This document shows, piece after piece, positions 44,618 to 63,966 of a stretch of DNA of 64,000 nucleotides. The position numbers were made by a program, and so were the translations under genes. How positions within the stretch are numbered: position 1 is the first letter of the stretch; every line of letters starts with the position of its first letter. The notes under the pieces are model-generated. The model did not search any database. It had not been told where the DNA came from and saw nothing but the letters and a program-made list of their open reading frames with translations. This DNA comes from a virus (lineage: Duplodnaviria; Caudoviricetes), in the IMG/VR virus record IMGVR_UViG_3300050821_001527, positions 64,001-128,000 of that record; one strand, written 5' to 3'.

Positions 44618-45001
44618 GGGGACGTAATGGTTTCGACATTTATTGTTGAAAGCCGAACGCAAGCACGGGATGATTGTTGGCCCGTTAAAAATTCAATCAA
44701 AACATAAATGCTAACAAAGTAGCACTTAGAAATGCAGTTGACTGCGGAGTAGTTCGCGGTTTTGCAGCATTTGCGATGGCTTAATGCCGTCCCGTCCACC
44801 ACTCCGATTCTCGCTACGAGTGAATGGGCGTAAAAACAGCGGGAAAAAACCCTAGAGCCGGTTCGAGGGTAACGGAACCGGATATTGATGGTGAGTTTTG
44901 CTGCCAGTGTAGCCAATCAAGAATATCAAAGGCTGATAAGCTTGTAGTGTTTTTCTTGCAAACGTAAGTGGACGCGGGTTCAACTCCCGCCGTCTCCACC
45001 A
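44618..45001 (+). ncRNA. ssrA: tmRNA, tag ORF 44710-44784 (A)ANKVALRNAVDCGVVRGFAAFAMA*
   Basis: 5' GGGGACG...GGTTTCGAC and 3' GCGGGTTCAACTCCCGCCGTCTCCACCA; G3.U70, A73; TA-N3-GCT resume context. Confidence 0.95.
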
Positions 45002-53437: not shown

Positions 53438-53509
53438 GGGCGTGTGTAGAAGGCTACTGGTTTGCTTTGCAAGCAAATTGTCGGGGAGCGTTACCCCGCA
53501 TGTCCACCA
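53438..53509 (+). tRNA. trnA-UGC: tRNA-Ala(UGC)
   Basis: G3.U70, loop TTTGCAA, T loop AGCGTTA. Confidence 0.85.
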
Positions 53510-53515
53510 ATTTTA

Positions 53516-53678
53516 CGGGTGTTGGCGAAAGTCAGTCAAGCTGACAGCGGAACCGTTAGAAAACCCGCCAAACGCAACCTCAAGTGTGGAGAATACTGGC
53601 TCATATAATTGCCTGAAAAGGCGATACAATGGGGGTTTTTAATGTCTCCTTGTGGGTATAACTCCCACACACCCGCCA
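53516..53678 (+). ncRNA. tRNA shell with about 90-nt structured insert in the anticodon arm (Lys-UUU-like if excised)
   Basis: GGGTGT/ACACCC-G-CCA, D arm, GACA/TGTC stem, T arm GTGGG-TATAACT-CCCAC. Confidence 0.55.
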
Positions 53679-53679
53679 A

Positions 53680-53875
53680 TTTCAGTAGCATTAGCGGTTA
53701 AGGCAATACGATTAGTTACGTGAGCCTCCGTCCACAAGGTAGTGGGTATAATCAAGAAACAAGTGACTCGGTGCCTAAAAGGAGTCATCCCAATGAGCGG
53801 GCGAAAGCTTGTCGCGTTCACCGATTACAAGGTGCATTGGTGCGATAAATGCAGGGTGCGAATCCCAAGCTGAAA
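53680..53875 (+). ncRNA. Multi-hairpin RNA with 3' T-arm mimic
   Basis: TTTCAGT/GCTGAAA closing stem, at least 5 internal hairpins, GGG-TGCGAAT-CCC. Confidence 0.5.
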
Positions 53876-53997
53876 GTATTTCTATCGGCATCAACACAAT
53901 GAACACACCGGCTTAAATGAGTTTCATAACTATGTTGAGTTAGCCGCGTGGTGCTGGTGAGTCGGCGGGTAATCAATCCCGTATGGAGAAAAGTTTC

Positions 53998-54071
53998 GGG
54001 GTTGTGGTTCAATAGCAGAACGGCGGATTCGCAATTCGCAGACGACGGCGCGATACCGTCCTACTCCACCA
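53998..54071 (+). tRNA. trnA-CGC: tRNA-Ala(CGC)
   Basis: G3.U70, loop TTCGCAA. Confidence 0.85.
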
Positions 54072-54081
54072 ATTTCAATTT

Positions 54082-54158
54082 CCGGCCTGCCGTTTGGGTG
54101 CGAGTCCCAAGTTTAAGCAAGTGAAAGCGGCTAACTAGCATAGGTCAATGGTCGGCCA
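54082..54158 (+). ncRNA. T-arm-first (permuted) tRNA-like RNA ending in CCA
   Basis: CCGGCC/GGTCGG-CCA; TTGGG-TGCGAGT-CCCAA near the 5' end. Confidence 0.45.
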
Positions 54159-54162
54159 ATTT

Positions 54163-54236
54163 GGGGTCATAGTTCAATAGTAGAACGCGAGGCTGGCAGT
54201 CTTGTAATCAGAGTGCGATTCTCTGTGGCTCCACCA
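54163..54236 (+). tRNA. trnA-GGC: tRNA-Ala(GGC)
   Basis: G3.U70, loop CTGGCAG. Confidence 0.85.
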
Positions 54237-55662: not shown

Positions 55663-55755
55663 GTTCCCGTAGCTGAAAGACAGCCGGTGCCCTTATAAAG
55701 CACTTAATCGCTAGATTGGCGTAAGACTCAGGAGCGTTACCTGACGGGAATACCA
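55663..55755 (+). tRNA. tRNA with UAU anticodon and long variable arm
   Basis: Loop CTTATAA; TAATC-GCTA-GATTG variable hairpin. Confidence 0.7.
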
Positions 55756-58279: not shown

Positions 58280-58364
58280 TCCAGAGTAGGAGAATTGGTA
58301 AACCCAGCGGACTGTTAATCCGCCGCGAAAGCAACTGCTCGTTCAAGTCGAGCCTCTGGAGCCA
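58280..58364 (+). tRNA. trnN-GUU: tRNA-Asn(GUU), canonical elbow, extra variable hairpin
   Basis: D loop GG, T loop TTCAAGT, GC-GAAA-GC variable arm, G73. Confidence 0.9.
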
Positions 58365-59311: not shown

Positions 59312-59457
59312 ATTTATAAACACCTAGACCGTGTGCGATACCGGCATGGTTTCGTGAGTCGGCTATGTCGAAGCCGAAGAAGATTCGCGGGACTTGGAGT
59401 GTGAAAGAAGCACGGGTGTATTTTTTTGAATAAAAAGCGGATTCGTTTATCATAGGT

Positions 59458-59835
59458 ATGCAAAACGTTTATCTGAACCGCGACGAACTCCTGCCGATTG
59501 TCAAGGAGAACAAGCAAAAGCACGACAACATTTTTTCCACAGCCGTTTCCGGCTATTGGGTCAAGGCCGAAGAAATCCTGAACGGCAAACTGAACAAGGT
59601 CAAAGCCAAGCAGCAAGTTGACAATTACCTTGGACTCAGCTATCCCGAAGACCATTCTGATGAATATGACCGAGTAATCAGGATGCTGGAACTTTCGTCT
59701 GATGACAAGATTCAGCTTACGTCTTCCGAGTTTGATTGCTATGTTCGCAATCAATGGAACTGGCGCAAGGCGTTCTTGACGGTCAATTCAACATACATTT
59801 CGGACTGGAACCCCATTTCCGGGGCTTCATTCTAA
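59458..59835 (+). CDS. Hypothetical helical protein, 125 aa
   Basis: TATCAT -10-like element 4 nt upstream; plausible fold. Confidence 0.7.
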   Translation: MQNVYLNRDELLPIVKENKQKHDNIFSTAVSGYWVKAEEILNGKLNKVKAKQQVDNYLGLSYPEDHSDEYDRVIRMLELSSDDKIQLTSSEFDCYVRNQWNWRKAFLTVNSTYISDWNPISGASF

Positions 59836-59915
59836 CAGTCTTGGTCGAGGCGTGGGTTCGATTCCGCCGTGTGGCTCCATGCCGCACGTAGCTTAGTGGC
59901 AGAGCGCGACCTGTT
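59834..59915 (+). ncRNA. YrlA-type Y RNA, canonical G18.U55 version
   Basis: GGTCG/CGACC outer stem, TTCGATT loop, 7-bp loop-closed acceptor GTGTGGC/GCCGCAC, D arm GCTT-AGTGGCA-GAGC. Confidence 0.8.
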
Positions 59916-59916
59916 C

Positions 59917-59991
59917 GGGGCTATGGTGCAGAAGTAAGCACGTTAGGTTCTCAACCTGAAAACGTCGGAGCGTTACCGACTAGCCCTACCA
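59917..59991 (+). tRNA. trnE-CUC: tRNA-Glu(CUC)
   Basis: Loop TTCTCAA. Confidence 0.85.
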
Positions 59992-59997
59992 ATTTAC

Positions 59998-60073
59998 GGG
60001 GGAGTGGTGCATAAGTAAGCACGGTTGGCTTTCACCCAGCAGAAGCTCGGAGCGTTACCGGCCTCCCCTACCA
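59998..60073 (+). tRNA. trnE-UUC: tRNA-Glu(UUC)
   Basis: Loop CTTTCAC. Confidence 0.85.
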
Positions 60074-60078
60074 TTTCT

Positions 60079-60156
60079 GTAGCTGACCAGTAAGTCGTCG
60101 TCTGCTCTGGCTTTCAACCAGATGTGTAGTGGGTGCGAGTCCCACCAGCTATGCCA
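60079..60156 (+). tRNA. trnE-UUC: tRNA-Glu(UUC), second copy
   Basis: Loop CTTTCAA, G73. Confidence 0.8.
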
Positions 60157-60219
60157 TTTCCGGGGTGCGCCTCGTCAATTCGTTGATAGGACGGCGAATA
60201 TATCACCCCACTTTTTCTC

Positions 60220-60297
60220 GGTTCCGTGGTGTAAATGGATTAAGCACAAGAGACTTTGACCCTCTTAGCTCCGGGTGCCAGCCGGACGGAACTGCCA
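60220..60297 (+). tRNA. trnQ-UUG: tRNA-Gln(UUG)
   Basis: Loop CTTTGAC, G73. Confidence 0.8.
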
Positions 60298-60304
60298 TTT
60301 TTAT

Positions 60305-60380
60305 TCCCTCTTGGATTGTAATAGTAGCAACTCGGGCTTTGAACCCGAAAGCGGTGGGGCAGAACCATCAGAGGGAGCCA
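60305..60380 (+). tRNA. trnQ-UUG: tRNA-Gln(UUG), second copy
   Basis: Loop CTTTGAA, U1-A72, G73. Confidence 0.88.
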
Positions 60381-60465
60381 TTTATCGGGGTAAGGGTGTA
60401 TTCGTGTAACGACCACTCGGAAGGAGTCTGGAAGCTTACGGACAAACTTCGTCCCCATCTATTTT

Positions 60466-60541
60466 CGGAGTGTATTGTCAACAGCAGACGGCCCGCCTTG
60501 GAAGTGGGAGGTAGTTGGGGCAGCACCAACCATTCCGACCA
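60466..60541 (+). tRNA. trnP-UGG: tRNA-Pro(UGG), second copy, A37
   Basis: Loop CTTGGAA. Confidence 0.85.
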
Positions 60542-60545
60542 ATTT

Positions 60546-60728
60546 ATGAACACTGAAAAAATCGTAGGTCAAGAATATCCAGCCGAATGTCTCGTTGATT
60601 CCAAGACGGGTCTGCCGGTGATGATTCGTCATACCGAAGATTCGGACAGGATTCGTCAGTTGGCGAAGGCCAGCGCGGAGAACCTTCTGAGGGCTTTGCG
60701 AGACGAAACGGGGCTGACGCCCATTTAA
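60546..60728 (+). CDS. Hypothetical protein, 60 aa, between tRNAs
   Basis: ORF fills the tRNA spacer exactly. Confidence 0.55.
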   Translation: MNTEKIVGQEYPAECLVDSKTGLPVMIRHTEDSDRIRQLAKASAENLLRALRDETGLTPI

Positions 60729-60733
60729 TTTAC

Positions 60734-60809
60734 GGGTCTATAACTCAAATAGATAGAGCCTCGCCTTCTAAGCGATGGGATTCAGGTGCGACTCCTGATA
60801 GACCTACCA
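60734..60809 (+). tRNA. trnR-UCU: tRNA-Arg(UCU)
   Basis: Loop CTTCTAA. Confidence 0.88.
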
Positions 60810-60866
60810 TTTCTAGTATAGCCACATGGCGTTTCACAAGTGCTTCAACTAGGTGTAATTCTAGGT

Positions 60867-61343
60867 ATGGGCCACAAAGCTACAAACGAACAACTGGCGG
60901 TTATTATCGCAGAGTCTATTTCCTTCTCTGAGGCAATGAGAAAATGCGATATGAAGCCAAGGGGAGCGTCTTACCAATGGTTTCAAAAACGAGTTAAGAA
61001 GCTCGGATTAGACACGTCTCATTTTAAGGGATACTCGGCTGGTGGTCTGGAAAGGGCCAAGCAGATAAAGAAGCATTGGTCGGAGATTCTTGTTTTAGGA
61101 GACGGTTCGGGCAGAGAAAGGTCAGAGCCTCTTAGGAGGGCTTTTAAAGAATACTGCTTAGAGCAGGCAGTCCCACATATTTGCAACGTCTGCAACGTCT
61201 GCAAGATGGAACCAATTTGGAATGGCCAGCCAATGATATTTCAAATTGACCACATCAATTCAATCAATTTCGATAACAGACCGCTGAACCTTCAATGGAT
61301 TTGCGGCAACTGTCATCAACAGAAAAATTCTAACGGCTACTAA
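60867..61343 (+). CDS. HNH endonuclease (second) in the tRNA array
   Basis: LDTSHF N-terminal module; C..C...FQIDHIN....DNR..NL.W.C.NCH. Confidence 0.9.
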   Translation: MGHKATNEQLAVIIAESISFSEAMRKCDMKPRGASYQWFQKRVKKLGLDTSHFKGYSAGGLERAKQIKKHWSEILVLGDGSGRERSEPLRRAFKEYCLEQAVPHICNVCNVCKMEPIWNGQPMIFQIDHINSINFDNRPLNLQWICGNCHQQKNSNGY

Positions 61344-61410
61344 GCTAATCAAGTGAAAGCAGCGGACTGAAAATCCGTGGAGTTTGGCGCGATACCAAAA
61401 GTAGCCACCA
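61335..61410 (+). tRNA. trnF-GAA: tRNA-Phe(GAA)
   Basis: Loop CTGAAAA; overlaps the HNH stop. Confidence 0.85.
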
Positions 61411-61415
61411 ATTTT

Positions 61416-61563
61416 GGGTATATGTTGTAATGGCAGCAAAAAGGGCGGGAGAGTCGAGGGAATAGCAGACCAACTATAGCTCTGTAAGCCTAGTAGCTCG
61501 ATTTGAAAACCTGAATACTCGTCTATACGAGTGGCCTCGGTTCGATTCCGGGTATATCCACCA
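61416..61563 (+). ncRNA. 148-nt tRNA shell (G3.U70, canonical elbow) with about 60-nt insert
   Basis: GGGTATA/TATATCC-A-CCA; D loop GG; T loop TTCGATT; variable hairpin; GTCGAG/CTCGAT-closed insert. Confidence 0.65.
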
Positions 61564-61567
61564 ATCT

Positions 61568-61646
61568 CCGTCAGTAGCTCAAATGTGGTAAGAGCGTTGG
61601 TTTGAAACACCAAAGGTTGTCGTTCCCCAAACGACTTGACGGGCCA
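61568..61646 (+). tRNA. trnF-GAA: tRNA-Phe(GAA), second copy, G73
   Basis: Loop TTGAAAC; T loop TCCCCAA. Confidence 0.7.
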
Positions 61647-61666
61647 TTTTAAGTGTATAATTCTGT

Positions 61667-61921
61667 GTGGAAGCACTAGCAAAACAGACCCTTCAATGTG
61701 ATGACTGCAAGAAAGTCATTGACACCCGCCGCGATACTGACCTTGAGGACAGCATCCAAGCGAAGTTGAAGAACCTCAAGGGCGACCCGCAGGTTTATCA
61801 TTTCTGCGCGGAAAGCTGCCTTGCCTCCTTTTTGCAGAAGCGCATCAAGAAAAAGAACGCCCGCGCCTCATACGACGCTTTCGCCTACGAGATTGATTTG
61901 TCCGGGGCAAAGGTTAAATAA
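61667..61921 (+). CDS. Small metal-binding (TRASH-like) protein
   Basis: CDDC...HFC..SC; TATAAT 5 nt upstream of GTG. Confidence 0.6.
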   Translation: MEALAKQTLQCDDCKKVIDTRRDTDLEDSIQAKLKNLKGDPQVYHFCAESCLASFLQKRIKKKNARASYDAFAYEIDLSGAKVK

Positions 61922-62130
61922 TGAAATTTTCATCTTTCGCCAAGCTTGTGTTGATTTTCGGGGCAGCGATTATGCTCCTTGATGGTTGCGCTCTCGTTGG
62001 TTGTAATCACGCATTCCCGCAAGTCGAATGGTATTGGTCAGCCGATGCTAAAGCCTGTCGCAAGGAACACGCGATGGAAGCCCAGTGGCGACAGTCCGCA
62101 ACAAACAATTTAAGGCAGTCGTTCAAGTGA
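61921..62130 (+). CDS. Small predicted lipoprotein
   Basis: Hydrophobic signal plus LDG-C. Confidence 0.5.
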   Translation: MKFSSFAKLVLIFGAAIMLLDGCALVGCNHAFPQVEWYWSADAKACRKEHAMEAQWRQSATNNLRQSFK

Positions 62131-62184
62131 ACAAGATGCTCTCATAAGGCGTCAAGGATGGAGCGTTACCATCGTCTGCTACCA
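62114..62184 (+). tRNA. trnM-CAU: tRNA-Met(CAU), miniature D arm
   Basis: Loop CTCATAA; GTTC-AAGT-GAAC. Confidence 0.65.
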
Positions 62185-62189
62185 ATTTC

Positions 62190-62266
62190 GGATTCGTAGC
62201 TCAAATGCTAAGAGCAGCCGGTTCTTACCCGGAAGGTTGTGGCTCGTCAAGCCACCGAGTCCACCA
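62190..62266 (+). tRNA. trnK-CUU: tRNA-Lys(CUU)
   Basis: Loop TTCTTAC; D-loop GC with T loop TCGTCAA (C19-G56). Confidence 0.85.
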
Positions 62267-62270
62267 TTTA

Positions 62271-62340
62271 TGGCCGTCAGCCTGAACCCCATCAGGCTAG
62301 TCCACCAAGGACGATGCAGAGGGTTATGCAACGGCATCCA
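62271..62340 (+). ncRNA. Three-hairpin cloverleaf ending in TCCA, no canonical loops
   Basis: GCCGT/ACGGC; AGCCTGA/TCAGGCT; GTCC/GGAC; TGCA/TGCA. Confidence 0.4.
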
Positions 62341-62344
62341 TTTC

Positions 62345-62416
62345 GCCAGTGCCGTCAGCACGGATTCGAGTTTTGTAAACTTGAAGCAGTCGGGGCAGCA
62401 CCGACCTCTGGCTCCA
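62345..62416 (+). tRNA. trnT-UGU: tRNA-Thr(UGU)
   Basis: Loop TTTGTAA. Confidence 0.8.
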
Positions 62417-62420
62417 TTTC

Positions 62421-62556
62421 GCCGTTCTAGTTCAATGTAGAACACGTCTCTCGAAAAGCCGATAGGCTCCCTGAACGGAGCAGTTAGTGGGGTGTTTGCC
62501 CTGCGATGTAATAAGGCCAGATGAACTGCTGGTGCCAAGTCCAGCGAACGGCTCCA
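62421..62556 (+). tRNA. tRNA-Ser(CGA)-like with about 65-nt variable region
   Basis: GCCGTTC/GAACGGC-T-CCA; loop CTCGAAA; multi-hairpin variable region. Confidence 0.6.
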
Positions 62557-62626
62557 AACTAGGCTGCGCGTGGTAGCCTCAGAGGGGTGAAAGTCCCTAA
62601 CCACGACAAATTTAATTCAATTTAAT

Positions 62627-62701
62627 CGCCCGTTCTGAATAATAGTAGTTCGTCGCGCTCTGAACGCGAAGGCGGTGGGGCAGAACCATCACGGGTGGCC
62701 A
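62627..62701 (+). tRNA. trnQ-CUG: tRNA-Gln(CUG)
   Basis: Loop CTCTGAA, G73. Confidence 0.85.
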
Positions 62702-63189: not shown

Positions 63190-63207
63190 ATGCGTGTAAT
63201 AAGAAGT

Positions 63208-63966
63208 ATGGGAAAGTTACTAAGACTCGGAAGAAAGCAAGCCCGCTTCGACAAGCGCACTTTGAAGCTGGAAGACTACATTTCTGCTGATTTACAGTTC
63301 CCCCGCAAGGTTGTTTGGCAGAACAAGATTCCAAATTGGGGCATGATGCTTAACGACCAGTTGGGAGATTGCACCTGTGCCGCTGCCGGTCACATGATTA
63401 TGAACTGGACGGCCAATGCGGGCGTCCTCGTCACCCCAAACGACAACCAAATTCTTTCCGCTTACGAAGCCGTTGGGGGATACAACCCAAATGCCGCTCC
63501 CGACGCCAATGGAAACAACCCAACCGATAACGGTGCCGTTGAACTTGACGTTTTGAAGTATTGGCAGGGAACCGGAATCGCCGGTCACAAAATCGGGGCT
63601 TACGTCAGCATTGACCCGAAGAACAGACGCCACTTGAAGTTGGCTATCTGGCTGTTTGGGGGAATTTACACAGGTGTCAACCTCACGCAAGCGGACATGG
63701 ACGCCACCAACGCAAACCAGCCTTGGAAATACACCACCGGTTCCTCGATTGGCGGTCACGCCATTCCTGCCTTGGGATTCAACCAGCACGGCTTTCAATT
63801 CATTACATGGGGAGCCGTTCAAACGGCCACTCCTGAATGGGTCGCCAACCAAACCGAAGAAGTTTACGCCTTGATTTCCGCAGATTGGCTTGAAAACAAT
63901 GGCAATGCTCCCTCTGGTTTTGATGCTCAACAACTTGCCGCCGACTTAAAAAGCGTCCAAAACTAA
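63208..63966 (+). CDS. Papain-like (C1-type) cysteine peptidase
   Basis: NDQLGDCTCA (catalytic Cys), GGHAI (His), ITWG; GTGTAAT-N7-ATG. Confidence 0.8.
   Translation: MGKLLRLGRKQARFDKRTLKLEDYISADLQFPRKVVWQNKIPNWGMMLNDQLGDCTCAAAGHMIMNWTANAGVLVTPNDNQILSAYEAVGGYNPNAAPDANGNNPTDNGAVELDVLKYWQGTGIAGHKIGAYVSIDPKNRRHLKLAIWLFGGIYTGVNLTQADMDATNANQPWKYTTGSSIGGHAIPALGFNQHGFQFITWGAVQTATPEWVANQTEEVYALISADWLENNGNAPSGFDAQQLAADLKSVQN

Follow-up and report, generated by a model that had tools for sequence, protein, structure and literature searches.

Introns of tRNA genes in Archaea and Eukarya that are spliced by proteins lie at position 37/38, carry a bulge-helix-bulge motif and are handled by EndA together with RtcB or Trl1. 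When RtcB is encoded by a jumbo phage, it is ordinarily explained as an enzyme of tRNA repair. Some RNAs of bacteria and phages are shaped as tRNAs and do not decode. The tRNA cluster of phage T4 contains the stable RNAs species 1 and 2, which are non-decoding and tRNA-shaped, while YrlA is a circularly permuted mimic of tRNA that works with Ro60. Alanyl-tRNA synthetase (AlaRS) does not use the anticodon.

Short 'enigmatic' introns without a ribozyme have been described in the tRNAs of Lak megaphages (Devoto et al. 2019, PMC6784885). They are conserved across genomes, and their ends are defined by alleles without the intron (PMC6784885). An alanine body joined to a non-alanine anticodon is found in mistranslating tRNA-Ala variants (PMC12084884; 10.1101/2022.11.23.517754).

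Here we analysed a tRNA-like gene (the candidate) from the tRNA array of a phage. Like the Lak tRNAs, it is a tRNA gene of a huge phage that owes its excess length to a short insert in the anticodon region, with neither a ribozyme nor a splicing route known from bacteria; unlike them, neither a homologue nor an intron-less allele of it was found, and an alanine acceptor is combined with a heptamer of serine or phenylalanine type. Its anticodon arm resembles those with archaeal or eukaryal introns in holding a short insert, and the genome encodes an RtcB-family ligase, whereas the candidate has no bulge-helix-bulge motif, the phage has no EndA, the insert is at 31/32 instead of 37/38, and the carrier is a bacterial virus. 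As in tmRNA (RF00023), an alanine-type tRNA-like end is joined to extra RNA, but the candidate has 148 nt and the tmRNA of the same phage 384 nt, and the candidate, with its D stem and variable arm, lacks pseudoknots and a credible tag frame. YrlA and the T4 RNAs resemble it as non-decoding, tRNA-shaped RNAs of bacteria or phages, some of them within tRNA clusters; it differs from YrlA in that the order of its arms is normal and the phage has no TROVE protein. The mistranslating tRNA-Ala variants have ordinary 7-nt loops and are proven decoders (PMC12084884; 10.1101/2022.11.23.517754), whereas the loop of the candidate has 58 nt and decoding by it is hypothetical. The candidate is probably derived from tRNA-Ala and unspliced.

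Methods

The window, which is the whole stretch of 64,000 nt that was analysed, corresponds to bases 64001-128000 of an IMG/VR virus record of 202,882 bp (CheckV completeness 91%). Positions refer to the window unless a genome or record is named, and base number n of the candidate is the window position minus 61415. Acceptor ends were tabulated for 30 tRNA or tRNA-like genes, and the tRNA-Ala(UGC) gene was read separately. Except for GCU, the tRNA-Ser genes of the phage surfaced only at a relaxed ARAGORN threshold, and Rfam gathering was empty outside the window. A covariance model, R1, was built from the candidate. For the deletion control, 50-59 nt were removed at ten starts, 2 nt apart, giving 100 variants for each sequence.

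Results

The phage has a genome of ~203 kb and comes from soil, and its sequence was present in two soil RNA libraries. Among the genes of the window are those of a phage DNA polymerase, a helicase, a recombinase and a ribonucleotide reductase. The candidate lies in a densely packed tRNA array that extends from ~53400 to past the window end (Table 1). Between the CCA of the upstream tRNA-Phe and the candidate there are 5 nt. The HNH gene is a mobile nuclease inside the tRNA array, 73 nt upstream of the candidate; its stop codon falls within the first bases of the upstream tRNA-Phe, which does not imply a link to the candidate. No promoter or terminator specific to the candidate was found, and the minus-strand ORF that overlaps it matched no protein family. 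Directly after the second tRNA-Phe lies an 84-aa ORF with a sub-threshold match of TRASH/zinc-finger-like type (23.6 bits, cut-off 27 bits).

Table 1. Coordinates of the candidate, its parts and the other genes considered (window positions unless a genome or record is named)
Feature	Position	Strand	Remarks
Whole tRNA-like gene (candidate)	61416-61563	+	148 nt including encoded CCA
Acceptor stem, 5' strand GGGUAUA	61416-61422	+	G3 at 61418; 7/7 pairs with 61553-61559
D arm UUGU-AAUGGCA-GCAA	61425-61439	+	A14, G18 G19, A21
Anticodon stem, 5' strand CGGGA	61446-61450	+	
Insert	61451-61501	+	51 nt in ARAGORN register; 53-56 nt in others
Insert-closing helix GUCGAG/CUCGAU	61453-61458/61497-61502	+	n 38-43/82-87
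Anticodon-loop-like heptamer UUUGAAA	61502-61508	+	Reads UGA; the loop one base on, UUGAAAA, reads GAA
Anticodon stem, 3' strand ACCUG	61509-61513	+	
Variable-arm hairpin ACUCGU-CUAU-ACGAGU	61517-61532	+	6-7 bp, class II style
T arm CUCGG-UUCGAUU-CCGGG	61536-61552	+	Canonical elbow (U54 U55 C56, A58)
Acceptor stem, 3' strand UAUAUCC	61553-61559	+	U70 at 61557; forms G3.U70
Discriminator A73	61560	+	
Encoded CCA	61561-61563	+	
Free-standing HNH endonuclease gene	60840-61343	+	phrog_10822, E = 6e-33
Upstream neighbour, tRNA-Phe(GAA)	61335-61410	+	Altered elbow; Rfam 47.6 bits; anticodon from alignment
Downstream neighbour, tRNA-Phe(GAA)	61567-61645	+	3-nt spacer after candidate
Overlapping ORF	61260-61682	-	140 aa
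84-aa ORF	61667-61921	+	
Second oversized tRNA-like gene	62421-62556	+	ARAGORN default: Ser(cga), 62-nt intron
tmRNA	44618-45001		Full; 384 nt
tRNA-Ala(UGC)	53438-53509		
tRNA-Ile(UAU)	55663-55755		93 nt; long variable arm
tRNA-Asn(GUU)	58280-58364		85 nt; long variable arm
Ordinary class II tRNA-Ser x4 (GCU, CGA, UGA, GGA)	genome 129371-133825		Just past window end
RtcB RNA ligase gene	genome 155372-156463		389-aa open frame; PF01139, 276 bits
Counterparts of the long-arm Ile(UAU)/Asn(GUU)	L056 17155-17247, 10954-11047		Distant relative G009; 85-94 nt across both phages
Leu-like class II shell	L072 6135-6272, record G004	-	No encoded CCA

The initial annotation had described a tRNA shell with G3.U70, A73, GG in the D loop, UUCGAUU in the T loop and a variable hairpin, and reading of the sequence confirmed every one of them at its place. 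Pairing in the shell was intact, with 24/24 pairs over the acceptor, D, T and variable stems. ARAGORN draws an alternative D arm with a weaker stem and an 11-nt loop; either the linker between the D and anticodon stems is an abnormal 6 nt, or the D stem is weak. Under R1, the variable arm aligned with that of the phage tRNA-Ser(GCU). Taking the variable hairpin as the anticodon arm, with 73 nt inserted at position 26, was rejected because a class II arm is the more natural reading. The fold of the whole gene compared with shuffles gave z = -0.83.

By ARAGORN default and Rfam gathering (29 bits) the candidate was uncalled, and the match to RF00005 was partial, reaching 15.1 bits over 61499-61560, below the gathering threshold of 29 bits. 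With the threshold relaxed and introns allowed, ARAGORN returned a tRNA-Ser(tga) whose ends are exactly 61416 and 61563 and in which CGGGA and UUUGAAA are separated by an intron of 51 nt. In the deletion control with ARAGORN default, a tRNA was called in 11/100 variants of the candidate and in none from 60 random genome windows (6,000 variants) or 40 shuffles (4,000 variants). Since none of these 100 control 148-mers gave a call, the shell lies far outside what chance produces.

Most tRNAs of the array (e.g. those at 53438-54236) have an altered elbow, with A-G instead of GG in the D loop and GCGAUAC or UGCGAUU instead of UUCGAAU in the T loop; the candidate is among the few genes of the array with a canonical GG/UUC elbow.

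Among the phage genes tabulated, G3.U70 together with A73 occurred only in tRNA-Ala(CGC), tRNA-Ala(GGC), tRNA-Ala(UGC) (53438-53509), the tmRNA and the candidate, in agreement with the alanine identity assigned to its acceptor end at the outset. The candidate has the full alanine set of G1-C72, G2-C71, G3.U70 and A73, which it shares, along with CCA and a similar T arm, with the tRNA-Ala at 53438-53509 and with tRNA-Ala(UGC) of the related phage G013. It departs from tRNA-Ala by the variable hairpin, the loop insert of 51-56 nt and an anticodon that is not NGC, and its canonical GG/UUC elbow contrasts with the altered elbow of the phage's own Ala tRNAs.

Likeness to class II tRNA-Ser consists of the long variable hairpin, a heptamer that can be read as UGA and the Ser label given by ARAGORN. 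However, the four tRNA-Ser genes of the phage all have G73 and a Watson-Crick pair at 3:70; the candidate has A73 and G3.U70, so the serine type of discriminator and acceptor stem is absent. The long variable arm, a trait of class II tRNA-Ser, is present in the candidate, and the tRNA-Ile(UAU) and tRNA-Asn(GUU) of the phage have one too. Counterparts of the latter two are found in the distant relative G009 (Table 1), and long variable arms on tRNAs outside class II are a habit of this phage clade.

When R1 was run on its own array, the top three hits were tRNA-Ala(CGC), tRNA-Ala(GGC) and tRNA-Ala(UGC), with 30.3, 27.3 and 22.4 bits, respectively. The tRNA-Ser genes of the phage scored 22.6 (GCU), 15.8 (CGA) and 7.0 bits (UGA), and GGA was unlisted at E <= 1. 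In the related phages G012/G013, the best hit was tRNA-Ala(UGC) with 36.1 bits. Judged by covariance-model score, the nearest kin of the shell are thus tRNA-Ala genes and not the tRNA-Ser of the phage, despite the shared long arm.

In the ARAGORN register, the anticodon stem consists of 4 bp (C31-G98, G32.U97, G33-C96 and G34-C95) and A35.A94 is unpaired, while the MFE fold prefers a rival 3-bp pairing, AGG/CCU. Whether of 4 or 3 bp, the stem closes 58 nt and not, as in a standard arm of 5 bp, a 7-nt loop. An insert of about 60 nt had been noted in the anticodon loop: the insert is there, with 51-58 nt depending on the register, but the register is ambiguous. Deletion of 51-58 nt yields ARAGORN calls of Ser(tga), Phe(gaa), Ser(gga), Gln(ttg) and others. 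In the UGA reading the loop is UUUGAAA and positions 31.39 form an A.A mismatch; in the GAA reading the loop is UUGAAAA and the mismatch is G.A, at 27.43, a reading that agrees with the usual 4-bp anticodon stems of the phage and with the loops of both flanking tRNA-Phe. The 4-bp stem suits Phe GAA no less well than Ser UGA. The earlier proposal of a tRNA reading Ser UCA survives as one of two registers, but Phe GAA is equally well or better placed, and a normal tRNA-Ser(UGA) exists. The heptamer UUUGAAA is one base off the UUUGCAA loop of tRNA-Ala(UGC) of the phage and of the tRNA-Ala of a related phage.

For the branch proposed within the insert and closed by GTCGAG/CTCGAT, the helix of 5-7 bp is real, but a demonstrably structured domain was not found, as 61451-61501 folds no better than its shuffles, alone (z = -0.02) or with flanks (z = -0.12). 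No second copy of the insert was found in the phage genome, and it is neither a repeat nor a known mobile element. At most two base pairs can be formed between insert and heptamer. Rfam families, including ribozymes, introns and riboswitches, gave no match to the insert at E <= 10; with 51-56 nt against a core of ~200 nt or more and no match to a ribozyme family, the insert is, as had been stated, too short for a group I intron.

Several motifs were tried and rejected. A tRNA minihelix as the shape of the insert was rejected because T loop and CCA are missing. By eye, the consensus was not cleanly met by a K-turn-like tandem GA (36-37/90-91) or by a sarcin-ricin-like AGUA/GAA.

An EndA-type splicing endonuclease (PF01974) was absent from the phage genome, and the control was positive in 4 archaea. 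No bulge-helix-bulge motif was found in the candidate under a loose rule that 161/300 random windows (54%) passed. The position of the insert is 31/32, not 37/38. Of the two kinds of enzyme that the initial annotation had suggested looking for, RtcB is present (276 bits) but a splicing nuclease of the EndA type is not. Profiles of the Rnl1 and Rnl2 ligases were silent in the phage, and the Rnl1 positive control was silent as well, which voids this negative.

The candidate was uncut in a 2,300-nt contig over 60800-62702 from one soil metatranscriptome run and in a 196-nt contig over 61413-61608 from a run of a second study. No spliced joint was reported in the two RNA libraries, read here as contigs, in which rare forms are dropped, ends and level are invisible, mature tRNAs are poorly captured and carry-over of DNA is possible. 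In run X2, the contig starts at 61413 and 61150-61412 are uncovered, and contigs cannot show ends. A JGI contig from another sample was identical over 59315-62701. The idea of a protein-spliced intron of known kind is not supported, given the lack of EndA and of a bulge-helix-bulge motif, the 31/32 position and, as weak evidence, the lack of a joint in the RNA contigs.

No homologue of the candidate was found by blastn among 50,697 phage records, by an exact 25-mer of T arm plus acceptor in IMG/VR, by gapped patterns for the 3' half in IMG/VR and JGI metagenome contigs, or by a gapped pattern of the apical loop in IMG/VR. A pattern for an oversized Ala-type shell gave 43 hits in IMG/VR, which were adjacent tRNA pairs with <=5/7 acceptor pairs, and 1 hit in JGI metagenomes, which was two bacterial tRNA-Ala genes. 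Relatives by DNA polymerase numbered 44 with 46-67% identity; in 18 related phage records (DNA polymerase 46-63% identical), BLAST and R1 found only ordinary tRNAs. In G009, the syntenic region has a matching tRNA-Phe followed by tRNA-Asn and an ORF, and no homologue of the candidate. The protein anchors 63190-63966 and 59458-59835 recovered a single locus, which was without tRNAs, and a neighbouring 199-aa protein had no relatives, its one other contig being 100% identical to the window. Since no homologue was found, selection on the RNA or on the insert has no support from conservation or covariation, and the weight of the finding stays moderate.

Two further kinds of hit were set aside. ARAGORN in intron mode on G004, G007, G009 and G013 mostly returned fusions of adjacent tRNAs. 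The match to YrlA/Y RNA (RF02553) reached 17.2 bits against a cut-off of 69 bits and bridged the 3' half of the candidate and the 5' half of the next tRNA; the phage encodes no TROVE/Ro60 protein.

Discussion

We tentatively favour the explanation that the candidate is an uncut, non-decoding look-alike of a tRNA that can be processed by tRNA enzymes and probably charged by AlaRS. Its product would be a CCA-ending RNA of ~148 nt that cannot read codons. As 58 nt are held in a 4-bp stem, normal decoding is ruled out unless the insert is removed, and as normal tRNAs for Ser UGA, CGA, GGA and GCU and two for Phe GAA are encoded, no decoder is needed from the candidate. With the top half intact (stack of acceptor and T stems, D-T elbow), the enzymes that process its neighbours may well release the RNA from the array transcript. 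Because AlaRS is blind to the anticodon and the acceptor has the alanine set, the RNA is probably a substrate for alanylation. The simplest origin would be a tRNA-Ala(UGC)-like gene that gained the variable hairpin, the loop insert and a change of C36 to A. A fold of the insert at the level of shuffles fits passive insertion better than a functional domain. If the RNA has a function, we speculate that it could act by mimicry of tRNA shape, for example by occupying AlaRS or another protein that binds or cuts tRNA. Provided that the RNA is made and stable, it would add an alanine type to the phage tRNA look-alikes of unexplained function, whose number is growing, and would have a body that AlaRS should charge whatever the anticodon arm holds.

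The same gene could be read as a disabled tRNA gene, in which a recent insertion of ~51-56 nt into a tRNA-Ala-like anticodon loop left a functionless transcript and the shell is perfect through youth; we regard this as rather unlikely. Its orphan status, with no homologue in phage records, IMG/VR, the 18 related phage records or JGI metagenome contigs, is what such an accident would leave, and so are the fold of the insert, which equals that of shuffles, and the abnormal 6-nt linker between D and anticodon stems, or else the weak D stem. Phage tRNA arrays also carry mobile nuclease genes, here the HNH gene 73 nt upstream, but the insert itself is neither a repeat nor a known mobile element. 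Moreover, the 24/24 shell pairs, all nucleotides of the elbow and the CCA are intact, and three separate departures (variable hairpin, insert and anticodon base) with zero stem mismatches are unlike neutral decay. A dead gene would be a record of fast turnover in these tRNA arrays. In another reading, which we consider unlikely, the gene is a working tRNA with a ribozyme-less, Lak-like intron that a nuclease cuts and RtcB rejoins, giving an Ala-accepting, class-II-shaped tRNA for Ser UCA or Phe UUY that mistranslates conditionally. Deleting 51-56 nt does restore a tRNA for ARAGORN default, and a 4-bp stem and a heptamer with U33 and A37 are kept beside the insert. However, there is no EndA and no bulge-helix-bulge motif, the 31/32 position is non-canonical, and the RNA contigs show, as weak evidence, no spliced joint. 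RtcB is encoded (276 bits), but in jumbo phages this enzyme is ordinarily taken for tRNA repair. A second gene of the array (62421-62556) also bears an insert and joins an acceptor of Thr type to CUCGAAA, the loop sequence of the true Ser(CGA), and short tRNA introns are reported in huge phages (PMC6784885), but for the candidate neither a conserved intron nor an allele without one was found. The spliced product would insert Ala wrongly at Ser or Phe codons, for which normal tRNAs are already present. We hold it to be very unlikely that the insert is a real intron at 31/32, free of both ribozyme and bulge-helix-bulge motif, cut by a phage or host nuclease and sealed by RtcB into an Ala-accepting, class-II-shaped tRNA reading Ser UCA or Phe UUY, and that it forms with 62421-62556 a switchable device for serine recoding. 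If splicing did occur, it would be evidence for a tRNA-splicing route in a bacterial virus without ribozyme or archaeal motif, and for deliberate mistranslation by a phage.

The initial annotation had also proposed a tRNA chassis that delivers an RNA cargo to the ribosome. In this form, a miniature tmRNA-like RNA would enter stalled ribosomes with its alanine-charged body and offer the insert as a short message, and the chance of this is in our opinion very slight indeed. G3.U70, A73 and CCA are as in tmRNA, and mini-frames such as GCA GAC CAA CUA UAG can be read in the insert, but they are of chance length and without the Ala-rich tail of the phage tmRNA tag. The normal D arm and the long variable arm of the candidate are absent from tmRNA, and no pseudoknots were predicted. 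No Rfam tmRNA match was obtained apart from tmRNA_permuted alone at 10.2 bits (E = 6.4). A full tmRNA is already present in the phage (44618-45001), which encodes no SmpB of its own. The cargo proposal is without support.

Other oversized tRNA-like genes

The second oversized gene of the array, at 62421-62556, has an acceptor of Thr type (GCC..., U73), like that of the phage tRNA-Thr(GGU). In it a 5-bp stem, CGUCU/AGAUG, closes 69 nt that begin with CUCGAAA, exactly the sequence that the true tRNA-Ser(CGA) has as its anticodon loop. The insert lies 3' of the heptamer in 62421-62556 and 5' of it in the candidate.

Related phages also have oversized tRNA-like genes, which are of different design. 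The Leu-like shell in G004 was rejected as a homologue of the candidate for its different design and an R1 score of 22.7 bits, barely above ordinary tRNAs. In this shell, 50 nt lie within the anticodon stem AAUGG/CCAUU. Its insert includes AGGGC, with which the heptamer GUCCUAA pairs, as well as a hairpin that resembles a T arm, GAG-UUCGAUU-CUC.
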